A stretch of 32,000 nucleotides of DNA from Wolbachia endosymbiont of Cimex lectularius (GTDB taxonomy: Bacteria > Pseudomonadota > Alphaproteobacteria > Rickettsiales > Anaplasmataceae). The stretch is taken from positions 990,001 through 1,022,000 of the forward strand of contig NZ_AP013028.1 in NCBI RefSeq assembly GCF_000829315.1, given 5' to 3'. The notes under the pieces were generated by a model, which worked only from the letters and a program-made list of their open reading frames with translations, was not told the origin of the DNA and ran no database searches. This document shows positions 5,876-32,000 of this stretch, one piece after another; positions within the stretch are counted from its first letter, which is position 1, and each line of letters begins with the position of its first letter. Both the position numbers and the translations under genes were made by a program.

Positions 5876-5884
5876 TCTAGCAAT

Positions 5885-6245: not shown

Positions 6246-6309
6246 CATTAATTATGCAATAATATATATTGTTTATTAATAAATCTATACTATAATTTAA
6301 GGTAGTATT

Positions 6310-6744: not shown

Positions 6745-6770
6745 TCTTCACCTGTATACGCAAGAGCTTT

Positions 6771-7385: not shown

Positions 7386-7410
7386 CTTCACAGGCTTTTG
7401 AATTGTTTTA

Positions 7411-7906
7411 GCTATCAATATTTAAGAAATTTACTAAACAGAAAAAAGCAAAAAAAACCCCAGCCATTGTCTATTTTAATAACTTGGCGTTAATGCTCTA
7501 TACGCTTGACAAGTAGCTGACCTTGGGGTTGTAAATACCCATAACTTATGATAAGGGAAACGTCAAAACTTGTCAAGCAATTTTTTTGTGAAAAAAATGA
7601 AGTTAATTAAATTTTTAACTAGTTTAAAAAAAAGACAAAAGAAACCCCGCAATGTGAGTTGTTTACTGTTCTCTCAAAAACTTGGCGTCCGGTTCTCTCT
7701 TACACCGCTTAGTAAGCGAGGCTCAGCTAATGTAGACAAAAAATTATAAAGACATGCAGTGTCCATGCTGCAAAAATTAAACATAACACGCCTTGTTTTA
7801 TACTGTGCTTTTGTCACTTAATACAAAGATTAAAGATAAATTTTAGGCCTAAAACACCCACAACCCTATTATAAGGGGACCAGCGAAGGTTGTTAAGTAA
7901 TTTTTG
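7411..7906 (+). repeat. Type-B modular repeat, copy B2 (two units in tandem)
   Basis: Unit a (about 7411-7600) and unit b (about 7620-7906) each run from the aaaaagcaaaa/gacaaaagaaacccc box to the ttgtcaag/ttgttaag + T-run box. Unit b also carries aaagacatgcag and aaaaattaaaca..acgcc. Confidence 0.75.
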
Positions 7907-7934
7907 TACCTAATTTAAAACTAGAGAGCTCAGG

Positions 7935-9577: not shown

Positions 9578-9874
9578 ATGTCTACAGGTAATATACAAAC
9601 AGATCAATTGTTTAAAGGTCTTACAAGACCTGCAATGCTTTTTGGTGTGAGTTATATGTTTGCAATATTAAACGTTCTAACTTGCATGCTAATTTTCATT
9701 AATTCAAATGATCTGAGAATAATTCTCTTGATGCTACCAGGAATACACGGACTTGGTTATATAGCTTCCGCAAAAGAACCATTGTTTATTGAATTATTTA
9801 TGGTAAAATTAGGAAAATGCTCCAAGTGTTTAAATCGTTTTTATCACGGAGCCAATTCTTACGATGTTGCTTGA
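9578..9874 (+). CDS. virB3: Type IV secretion system protein VirB3
   Basis: 98 aa with a hydrophobic hairpin (MLFGVSYMFAILNVLTCMLIFI, ILLMLPGIHGLGYI). It lies directly upstream of virB4, the canonical position. Confidence 0.85.
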   Translation: MSTGNIQTDQLFKGLTRPAMLFGVSYMFAILNVLTCMLIFINSNDLRIILLMLPGIHGLGYIASAKEPLFIELFMVKLGKCSKCLNRFYHGANSYDVA

Positions 9875-9883
9875 AAATATGCG

Positions 9884-14804: not shown

Positions 14805-14872
14805 GAGGGTCCTTAGTCTAAAAAATGAGTAACAGATGCTTAAACATTTAAGTAACCAAAATTTGGTAAGTT

Positions 14873-17266: not shown

Positions 17267-20200
17267 TAAGTAAAAGATCACTATTATTGATACTGTACCT
17301 TGCAATCACTGGCTGTAACATGGATTGTGTCGAGCCTGGACTGCAAAGCAGAAATACTAGTGTTAATGTGAATGTTCCAGCTCGTAAAGCTGATAAGGGA
17401 GTTAAAATTCATTGGGTTGATTCTGGTCAAGTAATCAGTAAAGATGAGAAAATCAAATTTACCCTTGGTGGGTCATTAAATTTTTGCTTCCCTAAAGAAG
17501 GCAAGAATCCAAGAAAAGTACTTGTTCCTGCCGTATTTTGTCCTGATGGTTCAATACCAATTTATAGTAAAGCTGCAAATATTAACGATGTGTCCAATAA
17601 TTACGGCGTTGACGAAAAAGGCGTGAGTGGAAACGAACTGTGTGGTGGTAGAGGGTTTGGCAGCAATAGACGTTATGTAGACACTGGAATTAAAGTGAAT
17701 CCTGGTGATAAGTTAAACTTTAGCTTGGTTCCCAGAGAGATACCAATTGATTATGATAATCCAGAAGGAAAAGGCATCAGCTTTGATGACAATTGTTATA
17801 AAACTGGAAAAGAAGATGACAAAGACAGAACTACAATAAAAGAAATGCTCAATGGAGGAACGTTCTTTTGTGGAAGCAATGGCAAAAGGACTGCAGTAGA
17901 ATTTCCTAATTTTAACAAGGAGAACATGGAAAAAAGAAAAGTGCTAGTTGGTAATGGCTACACTCCATATGATAATAAAGTGCATTTTAATAAAAATTTC
18001 ATTAAGGGCGACGAACCATGGATAAATGGTGCGCTGTTAGATTTGCAACGAGCAAGAGTAGGACTGAATGAATTATGTAACAGAAAAAACTGCGATTTTA
18101 ACAAGGTAAAAGGGTATAGCTCTACTAAAATAGGGTTGGAGCAACTATGCGACGGAAAAAACTGTAATCTTAACGAGATAAAAAAGTATAGCTCTTATGA
18201 GCTTAATTGTTACTACCAGAATATATGTTACACCAAAGAAGGTATATTCAATAATGGTTTGCATAAAAAAGGAAACCGGAACTGTGTCTCTTCTATAAGG
18301 TATGAGAAGTATGATAAAAAAAATAAAGAAAATAAAAAAGAGTATAAGTGCGACATGTACTCTCACCTTAAAGAAGTTGAAGATAGGCTCAAGGAAATTA
18401 AAGAAAATAAAGGTAGCACTGGTTTTACATCAACCGGCGAAGAAGACATCGAAAATATCTTATGGGCCGAAGCTCTTGTTGCAAAAATTGGTAATTTTGA
18501 CCCTACAAAGAATCGTAGGTTTGATAGGGAGAATGGTGGCGCTAAGGGTGCTCAATGTCTTCCAAAAGAAAAGGGTGCAGGTAAAAATGGTAATCAAGAG
18601 TATAAGTGTTCAAAAACCAGTAACGATTTTGAAGATTTTTCTTTAAGGTTGAATTATAATTATGAAGTAAACGGAGGTGTACCGCCTGGTAGTGATGTAA
18701 TGCTTGCCATAGCAAGTAATGGCAGTTACCCTCTTCATAGAGGCGGGTACCATGTTGAAGTAACCAGATCATGTGAATACATTAATGGCCAAAAACTGTA
18801 TATGTATTTAGGTAATGAACCACCTAAAGATTTGAGTGGCGTGGGAACTAATGATTTCAAAAAAGTAGAGGAGTTGTATCAAAGAACAGAAGATAATGTA
18901 AACTATTATATAATAAATGGAAATCATTTAACAGATAAAGAATCTGAGAAGATACATTTCGGTATCGATGTAAGTAACGTAGAAAAAGAAGATATTACAG
19001 ACGAAAAAGGCAAATATTATGAAAACAATGAGTATAATATAACCTTGTTTGTCAAAAAAAAGATTAACGATTTCGTTTCATCAAATGTAAACAAGGTATT
19101 TGACTTTATAAAAAAAGAAGTAATTGGGGATAGCGTCAAAGATTTATACAAAGGGTATGCTAAAGGTCTTCTTCAAGGGGTAAGAGCTTTACTTACCCTA
19201 TATATTATATTTACTGTTGTTGGCTATATGCTTGGAATGATACAGCTAAGTAAATTTGACTTTATTGTAAGGATGATGAAGATAGCATTTATAGCTTTTG
19301 CCTTTAGCGATAATAGCTGGAAATTCTTTGGTACAACTTTATCCAAATTTTTTATGGATGGTAGCACTCATTTAGTAGATAGTTTCTCTGGTTATATAGG
19401 AGAAGGAGGTAAAAGATTTGCGTTCTTAGATTTAACAGCAGGAATATTACTCACAGGAGAAACATGGTTGAAGTTTTTATCGTTGATATTCGCTGGTCCT
19501 TTTGGTTTTATCGCTTTTTTGATAATACTTCATGCTAGTTTTATGTTCTTAAAATGTATTATTAGCGCTACATTTAGATATGTGATATCTACTGTCCTAG
19601 TAGTGTTTTTGCTGTCATTAACACCTTTATTTATCGTGTTTATCTTATTTCAACAGACTAAGTCCCTGTTTGATAACTGGATAAAGACACTTGCTCATGT
19701 TGCAGTACAGCCGATGATTTTATTTTCATCTTTATCAATTTTGAATCAATTGATGTATTCAGTTTTGTATAACCTCACAAATTTCTCTGCATGCTATCAA
19801 TGTTTAATTAGTATAAATTTCTTGTCCTATGATTTCTGTCTTATGAAATCTATACTGCCTCTTGGATATAGTCCTGGCATTAGTGTTGATGTTGCATTAA
19901 GTGATGGAACGAAAACTGGTGGGCACTTTGCAGCATTACCTATAGACCTAATCCAGGCAATTATATACTTCATTATTGCCAAAGCAATGGAAGTTTTTGT
20001 TTCCGCATCAGAAACTATGGCACAAGCAATATTTAGTGCTGGTTTTGGGATTGCTGGCAGTGTTGGTGGTGTTGCTAACAGCGCATCACAAGCTATTCTG
20101 TCAACTGTTGGACTTGACGATGCAACTCAAGGAAATAAGGAGAGAGGAATTGAAGGCATGATACCACATGTCAAAAGAATGACGAGTCAGCAAGATCGAA

Positions 20201-20397
20201 CACAAATTGAATATAAGTTGCCTAAGACGCTAAAGCAAGCAGACGAAAATGAAACTTTTGATGGAACAAGGGGATCTGAAATTAAAGGTAAGGAAGAAAA
20301 AGATCGAAAGGTGGCATTGCCTGAAACGCTAAAGCAACCAGAAGAGGAAGAAAAGCTTGGAGCTGAAGACAAGAAAGAAGGAAGGGGAAATGAGTGA
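17263..20397 (+). CDS. virB6: Extended VirB6/TrbL-family T4SS channel protein, paralog 3
   Basis: 1044 aa. ATGA start/stop overlap with paralog 2. Lipobox-type signal MISKRSLLLILYLAITGC. TM block with the motif KSLFDNWIKTLAHVAVQPMILF. Charged C-terminal tail. Confidence 0.85.
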   Translation: MISKRSLLLILYLAITGCNMDCVEPGLQSRNTSVNVNVPARKADKGVKIHWVDSGQVISKDEKIKFTLGGSLNFCFPKEGKNPRKVLVPAVFCPDGSIPIYSKAANINDVSNNYGVDEKGVSGNELCGGRGFGSNRRYVDTGIKVNPGDKLNFSLVPREIPIDYDNPEGKGISFDDNCYKTGKEDDKDRTTIKEMLNGGTFFCGSNGKRTAVEFPNFNKENMEKRKVLVGNGYTPYDNKVHFNKNFIKGDEPWINGALLDLQRARVGLNELCNRKNCDFNKVKGYSSTKIGLEQLCDGKNCNLNEIKKYSSYELNCYYQNICYTKEGIFNNGLHKKGNRNCVSSIRYEKYDKKNKENKKEYKCDMYSHLKEVEDRLKEIKENKGSTGFTSTGEEDIENILWAEALVAKIGNFDPTKNRRFDRENGGAKGAQCLPKEKGAGKNGNQEYKCSKTSNDFEDFSLRLNYNYEVNGGVPPGSDVMLAIASNGSYPLHRGGYHVEVTRSCEYINGQKLYMYLGNEPPKDLSGVGTNDFKKVEELYQRTEDNVNYYIINGNHLTDKESEKIHFGIDVSNVEKEDITDEKGKYYENNEYNITLFVKKKINDFVSSNVNKVFDFIKKEVIGDSVKDLYKGYAKGLLQGVRALLTLYIIFTVVGYMLGMIQLSKFDFIVRMMKIAFIAFAFSDNSWKFFGTTLSKFFMDGSTHLVDSFSGYIGEGGKRFAFLDLTAGILLTGETWLKFLSLIFAGPFGFIAFLIILHASFMFLKCIISATFRYVISTVLVVFLLSLTPLFIVFILFQQTKSLFDNWIKTLAHVAVQPMILFSSLSILNQLMYSVLYNLTNFSACYQCLISINFLSYDFCLMKSILPLGYSPGISVDVALSDGTKTGGHFAALPIDLIQAIIYFIIAKAMEVFVSASETMAQAIFSAGFGIAGSVGGVANSASQAILSTVGLDDATQGNKERGIEGMIPHVKRMTSQQDRTQIEYKLPKTLKQADENETFDGTRGSEIKGKEEKDRKVALPETLKQPEEEEKLGAEDKKEGRGNE
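18061..18204 (+). repeat. Intragenic tandem duplication, 2 x 72 bp (24 aa), in virB6 paralog 3
   Basis: GLNELCNRKNCDFNKVKGYSSTKI (18061-18132) is followed directly by GLEQLCDGKNCNLNEIKKYSSYEL (18133-18204). Both Cys positions are conserved. Confidence 0.8.
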
Positions 20398-20468
20398 TAT
20401 CATGGAGTAACTAATTAAAAAGATATTTTAAGTAAAGTTTTATTTCTATATTTGGAAAAAATTTAGAT

Positions 20469-23400
20469 ATGCAGTTACGCTTAGGCACATTTTGGTTTAG
20501 GTTACTACTTCTTGCAGCTTATGTGCTGATAACAGGTTGTAATAAGAACGATATGCCTTTTCCAAGGTGCATATCTGCTGATTATTTTGGCCCTGAACCT
20601 ATTACAGTTGGTGCTCATTTTCCAATCGGTCATGATGCGTTTTTTCCAGAAGGTGAAAGTGGAGAACCTATTGATCCTGAGACCGACGAAATCAATTATG
20701 GTTTTCACCCTAACCAAGTGGTGAAGTGGAAGGATACCGGATTCGAAACCAATGGAGATGATTTAATAGTACGAGTTAATGGTGCATGGACATCTTGGAG
20801 TAATGATAATAAGAAAGAATCTAAAGGCAGTTACAGTTTGCAAAGCTTGGAGCAGCTGAAATATGCAACCAAATTCGAAGGCAAACAAGGCGATAATAGC
20901 TTGCCTGACTTTCACTTGGTTTGCAATGATTATAAATCTAGTATGCAAAAATTTTCAAGTAGTTCTAGTACAAGTTGTACTGTAAACTGTAAGCGCATTA
21001 ATGAGGATGATGGCAAAAGCATAGTGTCACGTGGTGTTCCATGTTGGTTTACTAATGGTCATGGCGCTTACCTTCTGTTTAAAAAGCCGGGTGATAACAA
21101 CCCTAACGAAAGTTTGAAATCCATGCGCAATCCTCAATCTCACACTATACATCTAGGTTATAACTCTGTAGCAGAAAATGGAAGCGGGCTTTTTACTTTG
21201 AAAAAAGGCGAGAAAAAGTTAAAGGACAGAAATTGTAAACTACTGGAGTTAGAAAAGGGATGGAAAATATATGTAAAAATATTAGACAGATATTACTTAG
21301 ACAATGTAGGCGGCTACTCTTTTGAATTTTTGAGCGGAGTGCAGCAACCAAGTAGTTTTGGGTTTTTTGATTACGTTTATCACTACCTAAAGAGTGTATT
21401 GTTGATCAATAAAAACAGTGAAGGTGAACCTGCAGCCGCACAGGCTATGTTTCAGAATATAGCTGAAAAGAGTACAAGTTTTCATAATTTTGTTCTTTCC
21501 TTGCTTGTTCTATTTATAGTGATTTCATCGCTCCTTTACCTTTTTGGTATGATAAGAGAAACTAAGCATGATATGCTCGTCAGGATGATGAAAATCACTT
21601 TAGTAATAGTGCTTATATCTCCTGGAAGTTTTAAGTTTTTCTACGATCATTTCCTTACTTTGTTTGTTGAAGGACTTGAATATATGATAAATGTAATTAC
21701 TAGCTTTGCTCCTAATATGAATACAGATGCTAATTGGGACCCTGTCAAAGCTGGTGGGGACGCCCGTGTTAAATTGTTCAGCTTTATGGAGGACATGTTC
21801 AACAAGTTTTTTGCTTACTCTGTTTGGAAAAAGTTTGCAGCGTTTTTGCATTACCAAATGTGGGCAAGCATACTTATGATACCAGCAATTTTCATAGGGA
21901 TCGTTTTATATTTCCTGCTGTGTGTATATGCTTACATAATATTCCTTTCCGGTTTCGTGGGTATAGCTTTTCTTATAGCCATAATGCCACTGTTTCTAAT
22001 TTCTATCTTATTTTCACCGCTGAAAAGTCTATTTGAAGGTTGGATAAAATTCTGTATTAGTTTCTGTTTACAATCGATTATGATATTTGCCCTATTATCA
22101 TTGCTGGCTGCAATTATAATGAATACCTTTTATAGGCAGCTAGGTTTCACTGTATGCTACAATAAATGGTTTGAAATAAGATTGTGTGCTCCAAAATGGA
22201 TGTTTGGCGGTTTTTGTATCATTGATAAACAGTACTTTGGTTGGACTCCAGGACAAATTTTTGTACCTTACACTATCGGAGAGGCTTCCCCATTAAACGT
22301 AGACAAAAGCATAGAGGGCATAGAAAAACTAAGCAGAGCAGGTGGTACAATAAAATTCACTGGCGGTGCTGGATATATTCCTCTTCCACCGGATTACATT
22401 GGAAAAGGTTTCCGTTATATAGACTATCCCTTCTTTAACCCAGTTCCTGGTACTAAAGAAAATCCAGCAGACCATTATATAGCAGAAAGCGACATAGTGG
22501 TTAGTGGTAGTTGTAGTAAAAATGAGAAAAATCTAGTACACTTAACAAACAGTTTATCCCATGCATCAGAAAAGGCTGACATCTTATCGTTAATAGATAG
22601 TATAAACAATAAGATAGGTGGTGATGATATTAATAAAATAGTAGAACACCACTGTCAAGATATAAACAAGTGCAGCAGTTACAGGGAAATAATAAATAAA
22701 ATAAGGGTTTTAGTGCAGAATATAATTAAGCGAAGTGTAAACTGCGAATTAAAGAATTTTCATGATGTAAATAAAAAGGAATATCAAGAAAATAGCGACT
22801 ACCAAAGGGTGCAAGACATACAGAGAGGTTATTTAATCAATGCGGGGGAAATCTTTGTATTATTCTTGCTTTCATTTTTAATGTTCTCCTTACGCGAGTT
22901 CGTACAACAAATGGGCTCAAGTATCGCTGGTGGTGGATTCAGCGTTTATAGTATATCTAAGATGTATGAAGCATCGCCTTTAGTTCGAATAATGGAAGGA
23001 TTAAAACGGTCTTATTGGCAAGATACAATTGGTGGAAGACTAGAGTCTTTAGGCAGTTGGGCTACTCATTTACCGGATAGATTAGCCGGAGGTACGGCTA
23101 ATCTACTGGGCAGGATACCACGAGTTGGAGGTGTGTTGAAATACGCTATTGATGTGCCACGTAAATTTGTAGGTGCTACTATCGAAGCAACAAAATTTGC
23201 AACATCGCCTGAAAATGACGTTGATAAACTTGAGGAAAAAATTTACAAGGCGTTTGGAGTTGACAAGGAAGATATTACGCATAGAAGAATTGGTAGATAT
23301 TTAGATTATTACAAAGGATATGTGGGGTCACATTTGGGCTATACAATAAAAGACGCTATGAAGTTTACTTGGGAACATAGTGTTGATTCTATAGGAAAGC

Positions 23401-23660
23401 ATAGCTATAATCATAACTTACTCTATAGAGCAAAATCGCATAGGCGAGAATTCTTGGACAAACTTCATGATTACACCATAGGGCGCAAAAGAAAGCCAGA
23501 GAGATATAAGGATGAAGGTAATAGTAGTCAACCAAGTGCGCCATCACCAAGGCCTAGTGAGCCAAATTCGAAGAAATCAGATGAGTTTTTGGGGGATTCA
23601 TTAAAAAGAAGTGTACCGGGTGAGCCAAGAGAAGGGAATGAGGATAGCGATGGAGACTAG
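20469..23660 (+). CDS. virB6: Extended VirB6/TrbL-family T4SS channel protein, paralog 4
   Basis: 1063 aa. Lipobox-type signal ..LLLLAAYVLITGC. TM block with the motif KSLFEGWIKFCISFCLQSIMIF. A long C-terminal extension ends in a Pro/Ser/Glu-rich tail. Confidence 0.85.
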   Translation: MQLRLGTFWFRLLLLAAYVLITGCNKNDMPFPRCISADYFGPEPITVGAHFPIGHDAFFPEGESGEPIDPETDEINYGFHPNQVVKWKDTGFETNGDDLIVRVNGAWTSWSNDNKKESKGSYSLQSLEQLKYATKFEGKQGDNSLPDFHLVCNDYKSSMQKFSSSSSTSCTVNCKRINEDDGKSIVSRGVPCWFTNGHGAYLLFKKPGDNNPNESLKSMRNPQSHTIHLGYNSVAENGSGLFTLKKGEKKLKDRNCKLLELEKGWKIYVKILDRYYLDNVGGYSFEFLSGVQQPSSFGFFDYVYHYLKSVLLINKNSEGEPAAAQAMFQNIAEKSTSFHNFVLSLLVLFIVISSLLYLFGMIRETKHDMLVRMMKITLVIVLISPGSFKFFYDHFLTLFVEGLEYMINVITSFAPNMNTDANWDPVKAGGDARVKLFSFMEDMFNKFFAYSVWKKFAAFLHYQMWASILMIPAIFIGIVLYFLLCVYAYIIFLSGFVGIAFLIAIMPLFLISILFSPLKSLFEGWIKFCISFCLQSIMIFALLSLLAAIIMNTFYRQLGFTVCYNKWFEIRLCAPKWMFGGFCIIDKQYFGWTPGQIFVPYTIGEASPLNVDKSIEGIEKLSRAGGTIKFTGGAGYIPLPPDYIGKGFRYIDYPFFNPVPGTKENPADHYIAESDIVVSGSCSKNEKNLVHLTNSLSHASEKADILSLIDSINNKIGGDDINKIVEHHCQDINKCSSYREIINKIRVLVQNIIKRSVNCELKNFHDVNKKEYQENSDYQRVQDIQRGYLINAGEIFVLFLLSFLMFSLREFVQQMGSSIAGGGFSVYSISKMYEASPLVRIMEGLKRSYWQDTIGGRLESLGSWATHLPDRLAGGTANLLGRIPRVGGVLKYAIDVPRKFVGATIEATKFATSPENDVDKLEEKIYKAFGVDKEDITHRRIGRYLDYYKGYVGSHLGYTIKDAMKFTWEHSVDSIGKHSYNHNLLYRAKSHRREFLDKLHDYTIGRKRKPERYKDEGNSSQPSAPSPRPSEPNSKKSDEFLGDSLKRSVPGEPREGNEDSDGD

Positions 23661-24270
23661 TAAAAAAAATTTCAAAGGTCTTGATTATTATAAACTGCAC
23701 CAGGACAAAGACGGTAGCATAAAGATAAGTGACTACGATGACATTTTAAATGCGCGTAGAGCAAGAGTAGACTTATTGCTGGATAACACTAAGCAGGATG
23801 ATATTAATCTTTCAAAGCTCAATAAGGCTCTTAGTGAGAAACTCGTGGATGATAGAGAATTGTTGTCTGAATTCGACAAGGAAGATCAAGAAATTGCTCA
23901 GGAAGAACTCAAGATGTTTAACATTTTAGACAACCTTGATAATCTTGCAAACATTAAAAGCGAAGATCTACTCGAGGTTAGTTTATTACTATCGGACCTT
24001 AGCTTCATAGAGAGAAATGTTGTACTGAATACCGATCAGAATTCTGATCTAGCAGGGTTTAAAGACTTATTTATCGAAAGAAAGGCATCTGGTGAGGAAT
24101 ATAGTGATGAAGAATGTCAAAGCTTTCTCGATAACATAGATAAAATCAATACTATAATTAAACTAGAGCTAGAAGGTAGGATTGAAGGGCTAAATCATGA
24201 TGAAAAAAATGACCGTGATGATTTACAAGATGAAATTGGTCGTGCAATAGGTACAATCAAAAAAAAGTAG
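23650..24270 (+). CDS. Hypothetical acidic protein, last gene of the virB3-virB6 cluster
   Basis: The ATG at 23650 overlaps the virB6-4 stop (23658-23660); an alternative GTG lies at 23611. The protein is about 206 aa, very Asp/Glu/Leu/Asn-rich, has no signal peptide or TM segment, and ends in a basic tip GTIKKK. No family was recognised. Confidence 0.6.
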   Translation: METSKKNFKGLDYYKLHQDKDGSIKISDYDDILNARRARVDLLLDNTKQDDINLSKLNKALSEKLVDDRELLSEFDKEDQEIAQEELKMFNILDNLDNLANIKSEDLLEVSLLLSDLSFIERNVVLNTDQNSDLAGFKDLFIERKASGEEYSDEECQSFLDNIDKINTIIKLELEGRIEGLNHDEKNDRDDLQDEIGRAIGTIKKK

Positions 24271-24306
24271 TCGACTGATTTTGTGTCTACAACTTTTTCC
24301 TGATGC

Positions 24307-24843
24307 CAATGGTAAATTAAAAAGTTTCCCTACGGTCAGATTAGCGAATTTATTATGTATCTTGTTTGATAACGAAAGTCGGTATAACCTTTATGCTTAA
24401 GAAATTCATTAAATAGAAAAAAAGCAAAAGAAACCCTAGTCGGTATTTATTTTTAGTATTGGCGTTTTTATGCCTTAAACGCTGCAATTTAGCTGCTTTT
24501 AAACACAACTAGTCTAAGCTATAATATTTAAGAAATTTACCAGACAGGAAAAAAAGACAATAAAAACCCCGAGGTAGCTAGTTATTTCACTCTCTATTTT
24601 AAAATCCGGCGTTGGGTGATGTCTTAAACGACTTATAAGCGCGTTTCAGCTTGTATGGGCAAAAACCCGAAGTTTTAAAAAGACATGCAGTGCACATAGT
24701 GCGAAAAATTAAACAATAGTACGCCAAATACAAGTTTTCTTGTCATTTTAACCTGTACAGATTGGGAAGTTAAACAAATAGCTTCACTACTATGATAAAA
24801 GGAATGGCGAAGGTTGTCAAGTAGTTTTTTTCGTCTCTATTGA
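24307..24843 (+). repeat. Type-B modular repeat, copy B3 (left arm of the ~540-bp inverted pair)
   Basis: It is the reverse complement of 29123-29673 along its whole length. The core at about 24530-24780 differs at only a handful of positions by eye. It contains one short and one full type-B unit. Confidence 0.9.
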
Positions 24844-24984
24844 GTAACGGCCGGATCAAATTGCAATGTTCATGCAGTTATACGCTTGACACTAGAACCT
24901 ATGGGGACTACTTTGATGGTATGGCAGGCTATAAACAAAGCTGTTAATTCTGCACAAAAATGTGTATGATAATTACAATAATAT

Positions 24985-25776
24985 ATGGAAAATATGGACA
25001 TAACTATACATTCACAGGAAGACTTTGAATTTATGCGAAAAGCTGGCCGGTTAGCAGCTGAAACTCTTGATTTCATTGCACCGCACGTAGAAGTAGGAGT
25101 AACAACTAATGAGTTAAACGATTTATGTCATGACTTTATAATCAAAGCAGGCGCAATTCCAGCACCATTGAACTATAGAGGGTATCCCAAATCGATTTGT
25201 ACTTCAAAAAATGCTGTTGTGTGTCACGGCATTCCTGATGATAAGCCGCTTAAGGATGGAGATATTGTAAATATCGATGTCACGGTAATTTTAAATGGCT
25301 GGCATGGCGACACAAGTCGTATGTTTTGGGCTGGTAAGCCGTCAATAAAAGCAAAACGCTTGTGTGATGCTACTTATGGCGCATTGATGGAAGCGATAAA
25401 GCAAGTTAAACCTGGTAATAAATTAAATGAAATTGGGCTTGCTATAGAGAAATATATTGAAGATTTTGGCTATTCTATCGTACGTAACTATTGTGGACAT
25501 GGTATAGGAAAAGTCTTTCATGCTCCGCCAAATGTGGTGCATTTTTATGATAAAGATGAAGATCTTGTCTTAAAGGAAGGCATGTTTTTTACAATAGAAC
25601 CAATGATCAACGCTGGAAAACATGAAACTCTGCTCAGCAAGCTAGATGGCTGGACAGTAACAACACGTGACCTTTCACTTTCTGCGCAGTTTGAGCATAC
25701 GCTTGGGGTAACAAAAAATGGTGTTGAAGTATTCACATTGTCGCCTAAGAATTGGCATTTCCCGCCTTATAACTAG
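24985..25776 (+). CDS. map: Methionine aminopeptidase, type I
   Basis: 263 aa. MetAP-I motifs are VCHGIP, DIVNIDVT, GWHGDT, CGHGIG, FTIEPM and FEHT (metal ligand positions). Confidence 0.95.
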   Translation: MENMDITIHSQEDFEFMRKAGRLAAETLDFIAPHVEVGVTTNELNDLCHDFIIKAGAIPAPLNYRGYPKSICTSKNAVVCHGIPDDKPLKDGDIVNIDVTVILNGWHGDTSRMFWAGKPSIKAKRLCDATYGALMEAIKQVKPGNKLNEIGLAIEKYIEDFGYSIVRNYCGHGIGKVFHAPPNVVHFYDKDEDLVLKEGMFFTIEPMINAGKHETLLSKLDGWTVTTRDLSLSAQFEHTLGVTKNGVEVFTLSPKNWHFPPYN

Positions 25777-25794
25777 ATTCTTTAAACTCAATGT

Positions 25795-25927
25795 ACTTGG
25801 CGTACTGTACAGTTCCATGAATGGGACTGGAGGTATTTGTCAAGTAGTTTTTTTGTTTCTATTGGATGACGTTATAACTTTTTTCCACTTTCGTCTGTCC
25901 GCTTTCTTTGTAGTGGAGTTGGTATAA
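25795..25927 (+). repeat. Type-B repeat, partial copy B5 (3-prime module only)
   Basis: 25837-25927 (ttgtcaagtagtttttttgtttctattggatgacgttataacttttttccact..gtagtgg) matches 6154-6245. It includes the ttccact..agtgga(a/g) hairpin. Confidence 0.8.
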
Positions 25928-25945
25928 CTCCACTTGCTACGCAAC

Positions 25946-25968
25946 AAAAGCACAGCTAGGGGCTTTTT
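25946..25968. terminator. Possible bidirectional terminator hairpin between convergent genes
   Basis: aaaagc (25946-25951) pairs with gctttt (25962-25967). The hairpin is flanked by an A-run on one side and a T-run on the other. The stem is short and AU-rich, so this call is weak. Confidence 0.3.
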
Positions 25969-25979
25969 AGATAAGATGC

Positions 25980-26435
25980 TTATGAATCACGACTTTTCTC
26001 CTCGTGTTCCACTTGTTCAACACTACCCTGCTTAACTTTACTGCTTATTACTTTCTCGTGCTTACCACCCATGCAAATTGTTTTTGCCTCATCTTCCGCT
26101 TCACTGTAGTATTTGTTTCGTGACCTTTTATATGCTTCGTACGCCTCCCTGTTTTCATATATAGGGTTGCTGATAGTTTCTATTTTTTCGGCTGTGAAAA
26201 CTTTTGCTAAAAACCTTCCTATAATTGGTATTGATTTCAAGAAATTCCTTAGCTTTGAAGGTTGTTGTCCTGTTTCTAGAAACCGTGTTTTAACAGTTTT
26301 TACAGAATACCTTTCATCATTAAAATTCGGAAATTTCCTTCTTGTCACTTGAATCTTTGACTCATTGGTTCCCTTAGGTCCTGGAGGTGTAGATGTTGCA
26401 GGTTTAACCTTAGTTTCATCATACTTTTTGCTCAT
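25980..26435 (-). CDS. Hypothetical lysine-rich basic protein
   Basis: 151-aa ORF with no competing ORF of similar size. It has a Pro/Thr-rich N-terminus, one amphipathic/hydrophobic stretch (FLKSIPIIGRFLAKVF) and an acidic C-terminus. No family was recognised. Confidence 0.5.
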   Translation of the reverse strand: MSKKYDETKVKPATSTPPGPKGTNESKIQVTRRKFPNFNDERYSVKTVKTRFLETGQQPSKLRNFLKSIPIIGRFLAKVFTAEKIETISNPIYENREAYEAYKRSRNKYYSEAEDEAKTICMGGKHEKVISSKVKQGSVEQVEHEEKSRDS

Positions 26436-26574
26436 CTCTCACTTTACCACGTAATATTATTAATCTTGCATAAGAATAACTAAATTATGGTTAATTGCAA
26501 GGTAAAAATATTAAAACAATTGTAAATTTTGTCAGTGAAAATATAATATAACTTTAAGTCAGAGGTTCATCTAT

Positions 26575-27630
26575 ATGGGACATAAAATTGCTGTTGTTGG
26601 AGCAACAGGAAGAGTAGGACGCGAGGTGCTGAATATACTTGCTGAGTTTCAAGACGAAGAAAAAATTTCGATAGATTCTATTATCGTACTCGCATCAAAA
26701 AAATCAAAGGGAAAAAAGGTGAGTTTTGGTGATGAAGAACTAACTGTTTCATGTCTTGAAAATTGTGACTTTACTGGAGTCAATATAGCCATTTTCTGTG
26801 CTGGGACTCATGTTTCTGAAAAATATGTGCCAATTGCAACTGAGGCAGGATGCATTGTTATAGATAACAGTTTCCATTTTAGGATGAAAGAAGGTGTACC
26901 GCTGATCATTCCAGAGATTAACAAAGGAAAAATCATGGAATACAAAAACCACAACATAATATCCAATCCAAACTGTACTATAATACAGATGTTGCTAGTA
27001 CTGCACTTATTACACCAAAAAGCAAAAATAAAGAGAATTGTTGCTTCAACTTATCAATCGACCTCCGGCGCAGGCAAAGCAGCAATGGATGAACTTTATC
27101 ATCAGACAAAAAAGATCTTTATGAATGAAACCAAAAAACCCGAGGTATTTCCTAAGCAAATAGCATTTAACTGTATTCCTCACATAGGAGAATTCATGGA
27201 AGATGGTTCCACAAAAGAGGAATGGAAAATGCAAGAGGAAACAAAAAAAATCTTAGGAGAAGATATAAAAGTGACTGCAACTTGCGTGAGGGTACCCGTT
27301 TTTATTGGTCATGCTATAGCAGTGAATGTAGAGTTTTATCAGCCTATAACTGAAGAACAAGCTCGTAGAGTGCTAAGTGAAACCGAGGACAATGGAATTT
27401 TAGTGTATGATAGGCGCGAAGGTGGTGAATATACAACTCAAATTGATGTTGTACAGGAGGACGCTGTATATGTATCGCGTATTAGAAAAGACAACACCGT
27501 CGAACACGGATTAAACATGTGGATAGTGGCTGACAATCTGCGCAAAGGTGCAGCACTAAATATAGTGCAGATTCTGGAGATTTTGGCAAAGGAACACTGT
27601 AATTCCTGTACACCAAATGGCAGCGCGTGA
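26575..27630 (+). CDS. asd: Aspartate-semialdehyde dehydrogenase
   Basis: 351 aa. N-terminal NAD(P)-binding motif VVGATGRVG and active-site Cys context SNPNCTIIQM. Length is typical for Asd. Confidence 0.9.
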   Translation: MGHKIAVVGATGRVGREVLNILAEFQDEEKISIDSIIVLASKKSKGKKVSFGDEELTVSCLENCDFTGVNIAIFCAGTHVSEKYVPIATEAGCIVIDNSFHFRMKEGVPLIIPEINKGKIMEYKNHNIISNPNCTIIQMLLVLHLLHQKAKIKRIVASTYQSTSGAGKAAMDELYHQTKKIFMNETKKPEVFPKQIAFNCIPHIGEFMEDGSTKEEWKMQEETKKILGEDIKVTATCVRVPVFIGHAIAVNVEFYQPITEEQARRVLSETEDNGILVYDRREGGEYTTQIDVVQEDAVYVSRIRKDNTVEHGLNMWIVADNLRKGAALNIVQILEILAKEHCNSCTPNGSA

Positions 27631-27887
27631 TGCACGAATATTTTACATATGCTCAAGTTAAGGGAAAATAACAGCGGGAAGAGTTATTTCAATATTGAAT
27701 CAATTATGTTTTTTGAAAATTTGCCCTTAATTTAACGCGTATGGTTGTTGTATTTCTCTTGTTGATGTCCAGCCTATCCTGATTCCGTTACTTCTTTACG
27801 TGAGAGCAGTTTTGGTGAAATAATGAAAAATATTCTTTGCTAAACGCTTTAGATGCGCTACTTTTATCCATTAGTTAAAGATTTTAA

Positions 27888-29002
27888 ATGCTACTACCCT
27901 TTCTGTTGATCTTATCTTCGATTGCCAAGTTTATTGAAATTGATATTTCTGTACCTAGCTTTCTGGGTATAGTGCGCTATTTCAATGTGTCGGAAGATAC
28001 AATTTAATTAACTATTGCTTATAATTTCCTAGGTTTTTGCATAGGAGGGTTGTTTTTTGGTCCATGTCTGAATGCTATGGCAGGAGGAGAATTATGATCA
28101 TAGGTAACACTTTACTGCTCGTTGGTGCTGTTGGTTGTGTTTTTGCACCATCAGTTCTTTGGCTTTTAATTTCTCGCTTTATTCAAGGCATTGGTGTTAG
28201 CACATCTGTAGTTGTATTTGCAATCGTTGCAGATAGCTATAAAGGCGACGAAGCAGTGAAGTTTATCGGAGTCATGAATTCTGTTCTCACAGTTGTCATG
28301 GCAGTTGCACCGGTTTTGGGCAGTTTCATCAATGAAATTGTGGGATGGCGTGGCAATTATGCAAGTGTTGCAATACTTTGTTTAATCTCTTGGGTTTTGC
28401 AGCTTTTTCTGTTGCCGGAAACGAAAAAGGACCGCGATATCTTTAATTTGAAAAAAATGATGAAAGACTATGGGAAGCTATTATTGAGTTCAAAATTTAT
28501 GGCACTATCTTTGGTAATGAGCCTTTTTTCTGCTGCTTATATGTCATTTATCACTTGTGGACCTTTTTTATACATGGAGACTTTTGGCTTGTCTAGCGCT
28601 ATTTATGCACTACATCAAGGTGCAATAGTTGGATCCTTCTCACTCGTCAGTCTATTTACTGGCAAGATCTTACAAAAACTTGGGGCAATAAGGTGTATAA
28701 TTTATGGTACAGGTGTGGTTATTATCGGGTCTTTATTGCTTGTTATATTTAGTATAATCATGCCCAATTTTCCCTACTCAATAACACTATCAATGATTGT
28801 TTTCGTTATTGGTTGTGCAATTTGCCAGGCAGTGCTTTTTAATGCATCATTGAATGTTTTCCCTGAAATTAAAGGTACAGCTTCTTCTGCAGTTTCATTC
28901 ATCAGATCTTTTATCATGGCCGTTTTTATTGGCTTAACGAGCTGTGTTTATAATGGTCAAGCAATCAGTACAGCTATTCTTGTTTTGTCTGATCAGTACT
29001 AA
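27888..29002 (+). pseudogene. MFS drug-efflux-type transporter (Bcr/CflA-like), decayed
   Basis: The ATG at 27888 opens MLLPFLLILSSIAKFIEIDISVPSF..., which is stopped by an in-frame TAA at 28005-28007. The same frame then continues as LTIAYNFLGFCIGGLFFGP. The MFS loop motif (SECYGRRRIMIIG) and the remaining ~10 TM helices sit in another frame (ORF 28037-29002). The frame switch maps at or next to the T6 run 28053-28058. Confidence 0.7.
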
Positions 29003-29122
29003 CATTTATTTTTACTGTTTATTTATTGCTTTTAAAAGATGCAGTATAAATGAATAACTCCACCCAGGTTTAAGTTCTTTTATACCTGTATATTCTACTA
29101 TATGTTCAGAAGCCACGGGAAT

Positions 29123-29673
29123 TCAATAGAAACGAAAAAAACTACTTGACAAATTCTTTCAATCCTTTTATCATGGTATTGAAGCTATTTGTTTAACTTC
29201 CCAATCTGTGCAGGTTAAAATGACAAGAAAACTTGTATTTGGCGTACTATTGTTTAATTTTTCGCACTATGTGCACTGCATGTCTTTTTAAAACTTCGGG
29301 TTTTTGCCCATACAAGCTGAAACGCGCTTATAAGTCGTTTAAGACATCACCCAACGCCGGATTTTAAAATAGAGAGTGGAATAACTAGCTACCTCGGGGT
29401 TTTATTGTCTTTTTTTCCTGTTTGGTAAATTTCTTAAATATTATAGCTTAGACTAGTTGCGTTTAAAAGCAGTTAAATTGCAGCGTTTAAGACATAAAAA
29501 CGCCAATACTAAAAATAAATACCGACCAGGGCTTCTTTTGCTTTTTTTTCTCTATTTGGTAAATTTCTTAAGCATAAAGGTTATATCAATTTTCGTTATC
29601 AAACAAGATACATAATAAATTCGCTAAATCTCTCATCGTAGGGAAACTTTTCAATTTGTCCTATTACCATTGG
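29123..29673 (-). repeat. Type-B modular repeat, copy B4 (right arm of the ~540-bp inverted pair)
   Basis: Reverse complement of 24307-24843, from the tcaatagaaacgaaaaaaactacttgacaa end at 29123 to the ttaccattgg end at 29664-29673. Confidence 0.9.
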
Positions 29674-29692
29674 GATTTGGTATAAGATAGAC

Positions 29693-32000
29693 CTAACAAA
29701 CCTCAGTAGGGTGTCCAGTTGGGCCCATAAGAACTATTTGTTCACCTTCTTTGAAGTACTTACACAAATTAGTGGAACCACCGGTTTCAAGTACAATAGT
29801 GGAAATAATTCCTTTTTTTTTGTCTACTTCAGTGCCAGTTACAGCTATACCTTCCATAGCAAGGCTTGTGGCTTTTCTGTTGTTAGTTTCAAAACTTTGC
29901 AATCTAAAGAATTGGCCAGGCTTGAAATTTTTTGCAGCAAGTGGTGCTTTGATCACTATTTCTACTACTCTGTCAGTTAAATATTGAACTTTTATGACTT
30001 TTGCAGTGAACTGTTCTTTGATCTTATTGAAGAATTCTTCACTTGCCAGGTGTTCTGGCGTCATTCCAGCGCATAACACTGGTTGGTTAGTTGTTTGGAT
30101 AACTCCATTCAAAAGCTGGGAAATGATAGGGTAGCCGTTTTTGGCACTTGCCATAGCTTTCACAACACTACCACTATATGAAGGATGAAGATCACCGAAG
30201 AAACTAATTGCTTTACTGCCTTGCTTATACACTAATATTCTATCTTTATTTTGCATCTTAGGAGAGAATATTGGATCTACTTCTTCCCCTGATGAACTCA
30301 GGTGAGCGAAATATCCATTGCTTAATTTAAAATGCTTTCTATCTTCCGTTGCAATGACTGTATTTGGCTCAGTACCCACTGCTATAAGAACAGAACGTGC
30401 TTTTATACACTTGACTTTGTGAGACTTTGTGTCTATCAGTTTTATCGATTCAGCATGGTTATACTTACCCGTCACAAATTCAACTGGCTCTAGGTTTTCG
30501 ATAAAGTAAATCCCTTCTGACAGTGCGTTTTGCACCTCCTCACTATTTAGTCGGTAACTTGGTGAACTTTTTAGCTCTTTTCTATATACAACTTTCACTC
30601 CCCCTAAACTCTGCATTAACTCCAATATTTTTGCTTCTCTGTTCTCTTTTTTTGCTAATTCTTTCTCTTTTTGGATCGACTGTGCGTGCAATATAAACTC
30701 ATTCGCAATTTCACGTTCTTCTTCTGTCCAATCTTTTTCAACGTAGTCTTTCCCATATTTACCAACCAATGTCTCGTAGCGAAGAAGAAATTTTTCTACT
30801 TGAATCGGATAATACGCTAAAGCTTCAGTGGCAGTATCAATTGCAGTAAGTCCCGCGCCTATAACAACTATTGGCATGCGAATTTGCAGATTTGCTATAG
30901 AGTCAGATTTAAGAGCACCACTGAGTTGTAATGACATTAGAAAATCAGATGCCATGCGCACCCCACGAGCTAACATGTTTTTTATCTTGATTATTCGTGC
31001 TTTACCAGAGCCAAGCGCTAGGGCTATGTGGTCGAAACCAAAATTGAGCACATCACTAACAGTTACTGTGCCACCAAAGCGAATGCCTCCATAAGACGCA
31101 AAATTTTTGCGTCTTTCTAGTAATAATCTAATAATCTTTAAGTAATTCTTGTTCCACCGAGAAGTAATACCATATTCTGCTACTCCACCAAACCCACTGG
31201 CTGTACGCTTACTCAATTTTTCATGCTTGAAATCTCTGATCGGCTGAAAATTATCAATCAGAGGTTCTATCTTTAATCCATCGATGGCGATAACATTATG
31301 TCCATCATTCAACAGATGATGAGCTAAATTAAAACCAGCAGGACCAAGGCCTACAACCAGGACATTTTTTCCAGTGTTTTCTTTCGGCAACGGCCGCTGA
31401 AAATTTAAAGGATTCCAACGACTAAGCAGAGAATATATTTCAAATCCGTATGGCAAACTGAGCACGTCATCCAAAACTCTTGTTTCAACCATTGGCACAT
31501 TCACAGGCTCTTGTTTTTGATATATGCACGAATTCATGCAATCATTGCATATTCTGTATCCAGTGGCTGCACATAATGGATTATCTATCATCACAATTGC
31601 AAGGCTGGCTATACTGTACCCTTCACTTTTTACCAGATTCATTTCTGATATTTTCTGCTCCAGTGGGCAGCCGTGCAGTTCAACTTTAAGTGGAGATTTT
31701 TTAAAAATCTCGCTTGGTTGACAAAATGTGGCGCTAGAATCTGCGTATTCTTTCTGGATCCCAGTGTCAGCCACTCGGATAACAGATGGCTGCAACCCTT
31801 TTGAGCAGCTGTCCTTATTTTGCTTATGACAAAATATGCAGTAGTGAGCATTATCTAATGCTTTATCTAAACCCACCCTTTCACTTGTTAGATCAAAACC
31901 ATATCGTCTTTTTACTTCATTTGAATACAGAACTTCAATCTCATCCACTTCTTTTTTAGAGAATGATACGAGATTTTCATAATCGATTTTTTTATGAGTA
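29693..32000 (-). CDS. Large FAD/NAD(P)-dependent oxidoreductase: Cys-rich Fe-S-type region, GltD-like dinucleotide-binding domains and a C-terminal PyrK/FNR-like domain. Partial; N-terminus lies beyond the window.
   Basis: Dinucleotide motifs VLVVGLGPAGF and VVIGAGLTAIDTA. Cys clusters HYCIFCHKQNKDSCSKG and CNDCMNSC. The C-terminal FTAKVIKVQYL..GQFFRLQ resembles a ferredoxin-reductase-type FAD domain. The apparent start at 31946-31948 is a GTG, and the frame stays open to position 32000, so the gene continues off-window. Confidence 0.65.
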   Translation of the reverse strand, partial: THKKIDYENLVSFSKKEVDEIEVLYSNEVKRRYGFDLTSERVGLDKALDNAHYCIFCHKQNKDSCSKGLQPSVIRVADTGIQKEYADSSATFCQPSEIFKKSPLKVELHGCPLEQKISEMNLVKSEGYSIASLAIVMIDNPLCAATGYRICNDCMNSCIYQKQEPVNVPMVETRVLDDVLSLPYGFEIYSLLSRWNPLNFQRPLPKENTGKNVLVVGLGPAGFNLAHHLLNDGHNVIAIDGLKIEPLIDNFQPIRDFKHEKLSKRTASGFGGVAEYGITSRWNKNYLKIIRLLLERRKNFASYGGIRFGGTVTVSDVLNFGFDHIALALGSGKARIIKIKNMLARGVRMASDFLMSLQLSGALKSDSIANLQIRMPIVVIGAGLTAIDTATEALAYYPIQVEKFLLRYETLVGKYGKDYVEKDWTEEEREIANEFILHAQSIQKEKELAKKENREAKILELMQSLGGVKVVYRKELKSSPSYRLNSEEVQNALSEGIYFIENLEPVEFVTGKYNHAESIKLIDTKSHKVKCIKARSVLIAVGTEPNTVIATEDRKHFKLSNGYFAHLSSSGEEVDPIFSPKMQNKDRILVYKQGSKAISFFGDLHPSYSGSVVKAMASAKNGYPIISQLLNGVIQTTNQPVLCAGMTPEHLASEEFFNKIKEQFTAKVIKVQYLTDRVVEIVIKAPLAAKNFKPGQFFRLQSFETNNRKATSLAMEGIAVTGTEVDKKKGIISTIVLETGGSTNLCKYFKEGEQIVLMGPTGHPTEVC

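Follow-up and report, generated by a model that had tools for sequence, protein, structure and literature searches.

An inverted pair of promoter-carrying repeats, probably members of a dispersed Wolbachia family, brackets the map–asd block of a wCle-type strain

The window analysed here, a 32,000-nucleotide stretch of DNA, belongs to a wCle-type Wolbachia of supergroup F and contains a 4279-bp block (24844-29122) enclosed between two arms of an inverted repeat. As described in the earlier note, the block carries map (24985-25776, plus strand; Peptidase_M24), a minus-strand ORF of 151 aa (25980-26435) and asd (26575-27630, plus strand), as well as an MFS transporter gene (27888-29046, plus strand) that is indeed dead: compared to the intact 387-aa wMhie orthologue, it has one in-frame stop and two frameshifts. 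The label 'orphan' given to the 151-aa ORF proved incorrect, as this is a conserved Wolbachia hypothetical ORF: supergroups A, D, T and F have a homologue of 137-151 aa, divergent from asd and upstream of it. The block is flanked on the left by a WD_0853-family gene (23650-24270, plus strand), with which the virB3-virB4-virB6x4 T4SS operon ends, and on the right by the 3' part of an RP005_N/Pyr_redox_2 oxidoreductase gene (29693-32000, minus strand; 972 aa), which is cut by the window end.

The two arms, 24305-24843 and 29123-29680, are reverse complements of each other, in agreement with the ~540-bp inverted repeats originally proposed to bracket the map–asd block. Gapped blastn of the left arm against the reverse-complemented right arm yielded 93.9% identity over 537 columns, with 24 mismatches and 9 gap positions (800 bits, E = 0); an arm-to-arm alignment was also made with MAFFT. 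A repeat search of the window resolved three collinear inverted segments: 24550-24843/29123-29416 (294 nt, 94%), 24417-24569/29396-29548 (153 nt, 95%) and 24341-24423/29545-29627 (83 nt, 92%). On the left, homology begins at ~24296-24305 and ends at 24843; on the right, it spans 29123 to ~29680-29686. The initial arm coordinates were thus accurate within ~10 nt; the right arm ends 7-13 nt short of the stop codon of the convergent oxidoreductase gene. The centre is near-identical and the ends are more diverged, as had been judged by eye: only three differences fall within 24544-24786, and the rest crowd toward both ends. The longest difference-free run in the list of arm differences is a 168-nt core (24588-24755, identical to 29211-29378), which is also the best-conserved portion of the repeat family to which we assign the arms.

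Both arms have the same architecture, consisting of one full unit of ~300 nt (24544-24843 in the left arm) and a ~240-nt outer module (24305-24543 in the left arm), with the predicted transcribed strand being minus in the left arm and plus in the right. Searching with an nhmmer profile of this family, against which the left arm scores 662 bits, we obtained 67 matches that amount to 5.2% of 329 kb of Wolbachia loci and are spread over supergroups A, D, F and T, including a copy in wLbra (L088, supergroup D), five copies within 21 kb of W. massiliensis (L090, supergroup T) and a 183-bit match in wAu (L272, supergroup A). Family copies are also found at many contig ends of one metagenome Wolbachia, and the contigs of short-read drafts end within the arms (L002/L003, 4571 nt; L004; L087). 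Further copies, all on the minus strand, lie in the window itself: a diverged full unit of another subfamily (5871-6189; promoter TTGACA-17-TATTAT), a diverged full unit just downstream of lysS (7627-7905; promoter TTAACA-17-TATAAT), a partial copy corresponding to the outer-module part (7418-7519; profile and blastn matches) and, inside the block, the remnant of a third copy (25810-25870), in which A-tract, -35 TTGACA and spacer survive and the sequence breaks off at the -10. In L285, wPaur, L087 and wMoz the orthologue of this remnant, which also occurs truncated in L084, L086 and L280, is a complete left copy adjoining the conserved ORF; the sequence running on from the remnant to 25928 is 88% identical to 6166-6246.

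Identity of the left arm (W_L) is 93-94% to the right arm (W_R), 94.8% to T_L and 93.1% to the right copy of L285; for unlinked metagenome copies it is 91-95%. As the identity between the arms matches that to unlinked copies in other strains, it reflects family-wide conservation rather than recent duplication. In the arms we found no transposase or recombinase, no match to an Rfam family, no conserved ORF (the largest, of 51-52 aa, showed no conservation) and no conserved RNA structure or covariation (consensus energy -2.8 kcal/mol, z = -0.54); there is likewise no recombinase nearby. Convincing terminal inverted repeats are absent from the unit, whose ends show a weak A-rich symmetry of 14 nt (AGACAGGAAAAAAA / TTTTTTTCGTCTCT, 86%). 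Plasmids gave no match to the family, and WO phage records gave marginal matches only. Judging the explanation as a whole, we consider it probable from these sequence comparisons that both arms are members of a dispersed intergenic Wolbachia repeat family, not a private duplication, and that the structure is an ordinary substrate of repeat-mediated recombination, the repeat family itself being moderately interesting.

At the start of each family unit lie an A-tract and a near-consensus sigma-70 promoter. The predicted left-arm promoter occupies 24792-24820 on the minus strand (TTGACA at 24820-24815, 17-nt spacer, TATCAT at 24797-24792; predicted start G 24785), and the right-arm promoter occupies 29146-29174 on the plus strand (TTGACA at 29146-29151, 17-nt spacer, TATCAT at 29169-29174; predicted start G 29181), each with 11/12 consensus matches. 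Both lie at the inner edge of their arm and point outward from the block, facing the 3' ends of the convergent WD_0853 gene on the left and the convergent oxidoreductase gene on the right. Of 40 motif matches, 39 are family copies and one is a chance match; 35 of the 40 have TTGACA as the -35, and 30 have TATCAT, TATTAT or TATAAT as the -10 at a fixed 17-nt spacing, while the sequence of the spacer differs from copy to copy. Decay of the arm promoters is seen in sister genomes A, B and D (TTTACA, TTGATA, TATCCC, TATCAA), suggesting that selection on them is not uniform.

Published data from wMel, a supergroup A strain, connect the family to transcription. The 5'RACE inserts for IGR-1047 (ispH/WD1275) and IGR-1021 (WD1243/WD1244) reported by Woolfit et al. 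2015 (PMC4349823, S1 File Table C) match the family profile with 123 and 111 bits, respectively, and nucleotide 1 of the IGR-1047 product aligns at 29181(+) and 24785(-), that is, at both predicted starts. Primers for IGR-446, -1021, -1047 and -1049 sit within family copies with 0-3 mismatches. Like the arms, IGR-1047 and IGR-1021 have the same 5' end sequence (GAAGCTATT / GAAGGCATT) directly after the conserved -10; they are transcribed in vivo, and family members rank among the most highly expressed wMel intergenic regions (PMC4349823). Unlike the arms, they represent a different subfamily with ~70-81% identity to the arms, and they are not an inverted pair around a gene block. Woolfit et al. 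set both aside as probable 5' UTRs or operon parts, with the IGR-1021 transcript running on into the flanking gene, and presented them neither as a repeat family nor as substrates of recombination (PMC4349823). By analogy with wMel we infer that the arm promoters are active in wCle, in which case each unit would be transcribed end to end from its promoter.

Such transcription raises the possibility, which we regard as tentative and rather unlikely, that the arms are primarily functional, with the outward transcripts acting as antisense or convergent regulators of the WD_0853/virB6 operon end and the oxidoreductase gene, or being multi-copy small RNAs that work in trans, and with the inverted layout as a by-product. 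Conservation of the promoter despite a variable spacer, the RACE-mapped starts and the high expression of wMel members are all compatible with this reading, as is the behaviour of the left copy, which keeps its position and orientation after WD_0853 in six supergroup F genomes, even with a different downstream neighbour, and is better conserved relative to T_L than the adjacent virB6-4/WD_0853 coding DNA (90.1%). Against it, conserved structure, covariation and an Rfam family are lacking, supergroup B has no element after WD_0853 and the promoters decay in sister genomes; the co-transcription of one wMel member with its flanking gene suggests a plain promoter or 5' UTR role.

Gene order around the repeats differs between genomes. 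In L084, L086, L280, L281 and L287 an orthologue of the left arm adjoins the end of the T4SS operon, and in L281 the same left arm is followed by YhdP, RNase H and cox genes. In L285, also of supergroup F, the series unit / conserved ORF / asd / MFS / inverted unit has DnaJ/Ank genes on one side and prfA genes on the other, with the copy adjoining the MFS gene being 93% identical to the right arm; in supergroups A, D and T, amino-acid permease genes flank the conserved ORF and asd. The presence of the cassette in the quite different L285 neighbourhood indicates that the repeats mark rearrangement breakpoints, and we infer that the breaks in synteny arose by homologous recombination at these repeats. 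In other supergroup F strains the right copy and the now truncated left copy already bracketed the conserved-ORF / asd / MFS cassette; a rearrangement in the wCle clade then probably joined the T4SS operon, with its own copy attached, and map to this cassette, and the inverted arrangement is inherited in that clade, fixed in one orientation.

The earlier note regarded the arms as a substrate for inversion, and being long, highly similar and inverted, they are a legitimate RecA-type substrate: a crossover between them would invert the 4.3-kb block. That the block flips continually, with both orientations coexisting in the population, is nevertheless improbable. The order T4SS(+) / WD_0853(+) / map(+) / ORF(-) / asd(+) / MFS(+) / oxidoreductase(-) is the same in all five contiguous wCle-clade assemblies (L001, L084, L086, L280 and L287), which cover ~10% sequence divergence, and the suggested synteny comparison thus revealed no inverted block among them; nor is there a recombinase nearby. 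Since the promoters lie in the arms and point outward, inversion would leave both as before with respect to the neighbouring genes and would not act as a switch. What favours ongoing inversion is the geometry (540 bp of 94% inverted homology with an identical core, 4.3 kb apart), the inability of short-read assemblies (L002/L003) to orient the block, and evidence of exchange in the sister lineage L287. There, judged by derived changes shared between its two arms (44 substitutions and a ~61-68-nt deletion in common, versus 9 and 16 private changes), non-reciprocal arm-to-arm exchange has clearly taken place, and the proposed gene conversion between arms holds for that lineage. The window's own arms have no derived substitutions in common. 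Compared to the right arm of the closest genome, the window's right arm is a mosaic, with right-type ends and a centre that is left-type at 19/21 informative sites; this could reflect recent conversion in this genome, and thus more dynamic arms, although the pattern is ambiguous and does not prove conversion here, given the L285 outgroup copy and widespread A/B-shared sites.

We attach very little probability to the arms being a recent duplication, or to the whole structure being a composite mobile element by which the block was transposed in one piece, both of which had been suggested. High arm identity could be read as a sign of duplication; however, unlinked copies are equally similar, derived substitutions common to the window's arms are lacking, and wMhie arms at the same positions are only 71-73% identical. 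For a composite element one may cite the L285 cassette and the weak symmetry of the unit ends. The movement of the block is in part corroborated by that cassette; the composite transposon is not, as transposase, conserved ORF and convincing terminal inverted repeats are missing, plasmids and phage offer at best marginal matches, and in L281 the left arm is tied to the T4SS end independently of the block. Finally, an assembly artefact, with a repeat collapsed or wrongly joined when a metagenome was assembled, is conceivable given that the source assembly is a draft and that repeats break short-read contigs. It is effectively refuted: four other independent assemblies, two contigs >1.1 Mb and wMhie among them, show these arms with the same flanks in the same order, and the window's proteins are identical to those of the finished wCle genome.

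Site-specific switches such as Hin, Gin, Fim and shufflons rely on short recombination sites and a dedicated invertase, and the segment that they invert contains a promoter or a coding end; the arms share with them the geometry only, all of these components being absent here. Neisseria Correia elements (CREE), of 100-155 bp, are short, non-autonomous, high-copy intergenic repeats that occur at rearrangement points; they have 26-bp terminal inverted repeats, duplicate a TA target and carry functional, outward-reading promoters at their ends. The arm family is likewise a short, non-autonomous, high-copy and promoter-carrying intergenic repeat at rearrangement points; its unit differs in being ~300 nt long, in lacking convincing terminal inverted repeats and in its predicted full-length transcription from one end. 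Inverted IS copies and rRNA operons resemble the arms in providing long inverted homology that flanks a chromosomal segment, is acted on by general recombination and coincides with synteny breakpoints, with Wolbachia treated by Ling and Cordaux 2010 (PMC3004938) and by work on IS-mediated rearrangements; in contrast to such cases, the arms are not IS elements and the five assemblies show no inversion. Lastly, Wu et al. mention uncharacterised repeat families of wMel that are multi-copy, non-coding, a few hundred bp long and scattered, with which the copy density of the arm family is compatible, a likeness by description that provides a lead.

The two arms that enclose the map-asd block are genuine inverted repeats, as the earlier note had read from the sequence: in a gapped blastn alignment the left arm matches the reverse complement of the right arm at 93.9% over 537 columns (24 mismatches, 9 gap positions, 800 bits), and a repeat search of the window returns three collinear inverted segments, 24341-24843 versus 29123-29627, at 92-95%. 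Homology extends from ~24296-24305 to 24843 on the left and from 29123 to ~29680-29686 on the right, the outer boundaries being fuzzy. Positions 24588-24755 and 29211-29378 form a core of 168 nt without a single difference, and the differences between the arms are concentrated at both ends. The left arm adjoins the end of the virB3-virB4-virB6x4-WD_0853 T4SS operon and the right arm a convergent gene for a 972-aa oxidoreductase; the block between them (24844-29122) holds map, a conserved 151-aa Wolbachia ORF, asd and an MFS gene. In the block and flank ORFs Pfam detected Peptidase_M24, Asd, MFS, TrbL and Pyr_redox_2 only. The window's Asd and WD_0853 are identical in sequence to BAP00316.1 and BAP00312.1, respectively, from the Cimex lectularius endosymbiont, which assigns the window to a wCle-type Wolbachia of supergroup F; its DNA also matches JBPETB010000001.1, a contig of GCA_051710345.1. 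The MFS gene (27888-29046) is indeed a pseudogene: compared with the intact wMhie orthologue it has one in-frame stop and two frameshifts. It is broken further in three related genomes (L086, L280 and L287) and intact (387 aa) in wMhie, contig L087 and the Ctenocephalides strain. The T4SS operon is complete (9578-24270, plus strand), with an overlap of ~11 nt between WD_0853 and the 3' end of the final virB6 gene.

Both arms are copies of a widespread, promoter-bearing, transcribed Wolbachia intergenic repeat with a unit of ~300 nt. As judged by an alignment of 19 family copies, an A-tract and CTACTTGACAA form the start of the unit, after which come a 17-nt copy-variable spacer, TATCAT and AGTAnTGAAGCTATT; its 3' end consists of a GGGG-T-rich tract followed by GGTAAATTTCTTAA. 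Of 40 matches to the motif, 39 are family copies and one is due to chance; the -35 element is TTGACA in 35 of the 40 and the -10 element is TATCAT, TATTAT or TATAAT in 30, always at a distance of 17 nt; since the hexamers are conserved and the spacer between them is variable, the element has the appearance of a functional promoter. Each arm comprises one full unit and an outer module of ~240 nt that repeats the 3' part of the unit, which explains the internal direct repeat of 131-134 nt. The consensus scan scored both arm promoters at 11/12, at 24820-24792 (minus strand) and 29146-29174 (plus strand); both sit at the inner arm edge and are directed outward from the block. The scan predicted no intrinsic terminator in either arm, although the unit closes with the conserved GGGG-T-rich tract.

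Evidence for transcription comes from wMel, for which cloned 5'RACE products of highly expressed intergenic regions are listed in a supplementary file (Woolfit et al. 2015, PMC4349823). Two of these products match the arm profile, IGR-1047 with 123 bits and IGR-1021 with 111 bits. The first nucleotide of the IGR-1047 product aligns at window positions 29181 (plus) and 24785 (minus), in both cases a G seven nt past the -10 element, which matches the expected sigma-70 start; the product runs beyond the GGGG-T-rich tract. The primers for IGR-446, -1021, -1047 and -1049 all map within family copies with 0-3 mismatches. As these RACE products of wMel are family members, the family is transcribed in vivo in wMel, and by extension the arm promoters are probably active in wCle. 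The original authors noted that repetitiveness made primer design harder, and that the IGR-1021 RNA reads on into its flanking gene and is co-transcribed with it, for which reason they discounted it as a possible 5' UTR (PMC4349823). Several wMel 'highly expressed intergenic regions' are now tied to one repeat family, and Wolbachia candidate small RNAs and orphan start sites need checking against it. The published RNA ncrwmel02 has no similarity to the window. A separate observation concerns wMel IGR-781 (WD0955/WD0956), in whose region the Cappable-seq paper places a highly expressed orphan start site, at 915,471: its primers match exactly at 9183-9213 of the wAu locus (L272), with an IS110 transposase gene on one side and, on the other, the conserved ORF that lies upstream of asd. 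This is the position taken by the left family copy in supergroup F, and the sequence there is without similarity to the family.

The family is abundant: 67 arm-profile matches make up 5.2% of 329 kb of Wolbachia loci, and the 32-kb window alone contains five copies or remnants. Diverged copies lie at 5871-6189 and 7627-7905 (profile and repeat search) and at 7418-7519 (profile search and blastn), and a truncated copy, cut at its own -10 element, lies directly downstream of map at 25810-25870. Copies were found in supergroups A, D, F and T, including wAu (A), wLbra (D, L088) and W. massiliensis (T, five copies within 21 kb of L090). The metagenome Wolbachia Ga0209755 carries many copies located at contig ends; it was uncovered by exact-pattern scans with TTGTCAAGTAGTTTTTTT, a pattern so short that its matches to metagenome and viral contigs are mostly chance. 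Short-read draft contigs likewise end inside the arms: L002 and L003 (4571 nt) consist of the block plus ~140-156 nt per arm, and breaks of the same kind occur in wPaur (L004) and L087. With many intergenic copies common to several strains, the unit behaves like families of the REP/BIME, ERIC, Correia and RPE/WPE kind, yet it belongs to no named one. REP and RPE/WPE units are palindromic or hairpin-forming, and Correia and ERIC elements have long terminal inverted repeats, whereas the Wolbachia unit has no intra-unit inverted repeats beyond A/T runs. Two family copies are directly preceded at their promoter end by related sequence (25848-25928 and 6166-6246), 88% identical over 81 nt; some copies thus have an extra module that the arms are without.

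Comparison across supergroups indicates how the bracket arose. In the complete genome of the supergroup-F Ctenocephalides strain (L285), a cassette of the conserved ORF, asd and the MFS gene is bracketed by inverted family copies with their promoters outward, and lies between DnaJ/ankyrin genes and prfA, without the T4SS, map or the oxidoreductase gene. Contigs from wPaur, L087 and L286 start and stop in bracket copies of this type and are likewise without map; in wMoz (L005) just the left copy is present. What survives in the window of the ancestral left copy of this cassette is the truncated unit at 25810-25870. The copy that forms the window's left arm is a separate one, which lies 3' of WD_0853 in every supergroup-F genome examined; in L281, one of these, the genes that come next are YhdP, RNase H and cox genes. 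Amino-acid permease genes adjoin the conserved ORF and asd in supergroups A, D and T. In supergroup B a methyltransferase gene follows WD_0853 after 105 nt with no family copy between, so the association with the T4SS end is not universal. Given these differing neighbourhoods of the WD_0853 copy and of the ORF/asd cassette, the repeats coincide with synteny breakpoints, and homologous recombination at the repeats is the probable cause of the breaks.

Of the processes that the earlier note had raised to account for the similarity of the arms, gene conversion is the one that stands, albeit in a relative. In L287 (GCA_051710485.1) the arms (7775-8268 and 12553-13053) have 44 shared derived substitutions and a shared deletion of ~61-68 nt, as against 9 and 16 private changes; the deletion takes out part of the transcribed core, and in both arms the -10 element is weakened to TATCAA. 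From this pattern of substitutions, concerted evolution through arm-to-arm conversion is unambiguous, and L287 offers a small, clean case of inverted repeats evolving in concert in an endosymbiont. The window arms have no shared derived substitutions (0). The right arm looks mosaic when set against that of the closest relative: its ends are right-type, 19 of 21 informative sites in its centre are left-type, and this centre contains a 134-nt segment absent from the right arms of L086 (12532-12989) and L280 (15437-15891), which have the same gap, bounded by the internal direct repeat GGTAAATTTCTTAA. The outgroup copy in L285 has the 'left-type' states as well as the 134-nt segment, and sites at which L086 and L280 share a state that differs from the window occur across the whole 12 kb and are common throughout the flanks, which suggests recombination between strains of this clade. 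On these grounds we do not claim recent conversion in wCle; in the right arm of the window it is possible but unproven.

Active inversion of the block, for which the arms had been proposed as a substrate, fares less well. That the arms can serve as a recombination substrate is borne out by the conversion seen within the clade. Five contiguous assemblies, however, have the same gene order and strands: the window's own contig (L001), L086 (98% identity in the flanks), wMhie (L084, 95-97%), L280 (93-95%, a 1.15-Mb contig) and L287 (89-92%, a 1.14-Mb contig). The common order is T4SS, WD_0853, left arm, map, truncated unit, ORF (minus), asd, MFS gene, right arm and oxidoreductase gene (minus), and at the assembly level none of the five has the inverted arrangement. 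An Asd-anchored locus search gave 3 Wolbachia loci among 80, and synteny was rebuilt via protein look-ups. GC skew tracks gene strand alone and is uninformative on past inversion. Switches of the Hin/Gin/Fim type are bordered by short inverted recombination sites of about 14-30 bp and are seen in both orientations, whereas the wCle borders are homologous repeats of ~540 bp around a block of constant orientation. Nor does the segment have a dedicated serine or tyrosine recombinase in or beside it (none within 10 kb on either side by L001 gene calls and Pfam), or flip-dependent expression, given that the strong promoters sit in the arms and face outward on both sides. With the promoters positioned on the block side of the identical core, a crossover within the core would exchange the two promoter ends and restore the same outward-firing layout; inversion would do no more than turn map, the ORF, asd and the dead MFS gene around on the chromosome. 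The logic would therefore not be that of a phase-variation switch. As an inversion candidate the locus is ordinary, and nothing suggests that the block flips.

Recent duplication, the other explanation offered for the high arm identity, is not supported by comparison with unlinked copies. The left and right window arms are 93-94% identical. For the left arm, identity is 94.8% with the L281 orthologue (where neighbouring coding DNA reaches only 90%), 93.1% with the right copy of L285, and 91-95% with unlinked copies in the metagenome Wolbachia. Arm-to-arm identity is thus the norm of the subfamily and no sign of recent duplication. The right arm of wMhie is an outlier at 71-74% identity.

A composite-element reading, in which the arms moved the block, could draw on L285, where the series of unit, ORF, asd, MFS gene and inverted unit occurs in a different context; the left arm of the window is, however, a different, T4SS-anchored copy, and breakpoints at repeats fit the L285 pattern as well as transposition does. 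Composite transposons are flanked by IS elements with a transposase, whereas the wCle arms encode none: Pfam detected no transposase or recombinase in the block and flank ORFs, arm ORFs are not conserved, and the unit ends have a low-complexity 14-nt A-run/T-run symmetry (86%) but no convincing terminal inverted repeats. On this evidence a composite transposon is not supported. A small protein or type I toxin encoded by the hydrophobic 51-52-aa arm ORFs, the largest in the arms, was rejected, as these have no Pfam match and are frameshifted, stop-interrupted or deleted in B_L, T_L, C_R, A_R and B_R (left, _L, and right, _R, arms; A/B, L086 and L280; T, L281). A structured non-coding RNA was rejected as well: the RNAalifold consensus of 15 diverse copies is near-empty (-2.79 kcal/mol, 14 pairs, 1 compensatory change), the fold of the arm RNA is no better than shuffles (z = -0.54), and Rfam returned nothing at gathering thresholds across the whole window and, with E-value thresholds, noise for the left arm (E >= 0.97). 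A plasmid or phage origin was rejected too, with no plasmid match and two marginal matches of 94-130 nt at the edges of WO records. The window contains no tRNA or tmRNA integration site.

The useful by-product of this analysis is the identification of the repeat unit, with its near-consensus promoter, a start matched by wMel RACE and a distribution from supergroup A to T; it sits at synteny breakpoints and breaks short-read assemblies. Wolbachia genomes are repeat-rich and heavily rearranged. A bolder view, which we regard as a long shot, is that selection maintains the unit as a promoter cassette, possibly a mobile one, and that paired inverted copies delimit reshuffled gene cassettes. Dozens of copies would then give neighbouring genes strong sigma-70 promoters and long leaders or, alternatively, fire convergently into operon ends such as that of virB3-virB6-WD_0853 of the T4SS, acting as antisense regulators or insulators. 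If true, the family would be a major transcription organiser in a regulator-poor endosymbiont and also the main driver of its genome rearrangements. More modestly, the repeat may account for the origin of some strong promoters in such a genome, and it merits modest follow-up.

The window contains further repeats. A second family forms an inverted pair of 145 nt at 99% (5615-5759 and 7170-7314, 1.4 kb apart), recurs at 5443-5476, 6881-6912, 44-90 and 31751-31784, and contains the palindrome TGTCATCCCAGTG...CACTGGGATGACA. Over 90 nt it matches, at ~80% identity, the 5'RACE clone of ncrwmel01 (IGR-60), a published small RNA of wMel, and this 'sRNA' is therefore apparently also a member of a dispersed repeat. 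The stretch 5224-7934, between an OMP-like gene and lysS, is 2.7 kb without a long ORF (only 58-60 aa, at 6310-6486 and 6562-6744); it is a mosaic to which at least three repeat families contribute, two of its parts being arm-family units. Finally, a ~58-nt repeat (AATTGCAATGTTCGTACAGTTGTGCG...) adjoins the inner end of the left arm at 24841-24898 and occurs also at 1-58, 5745-5802 and 7322-7379; in wMhie the same motif makes up the right arm's outer part and, given these varied settings, the repeat families occur as modular mosaics.
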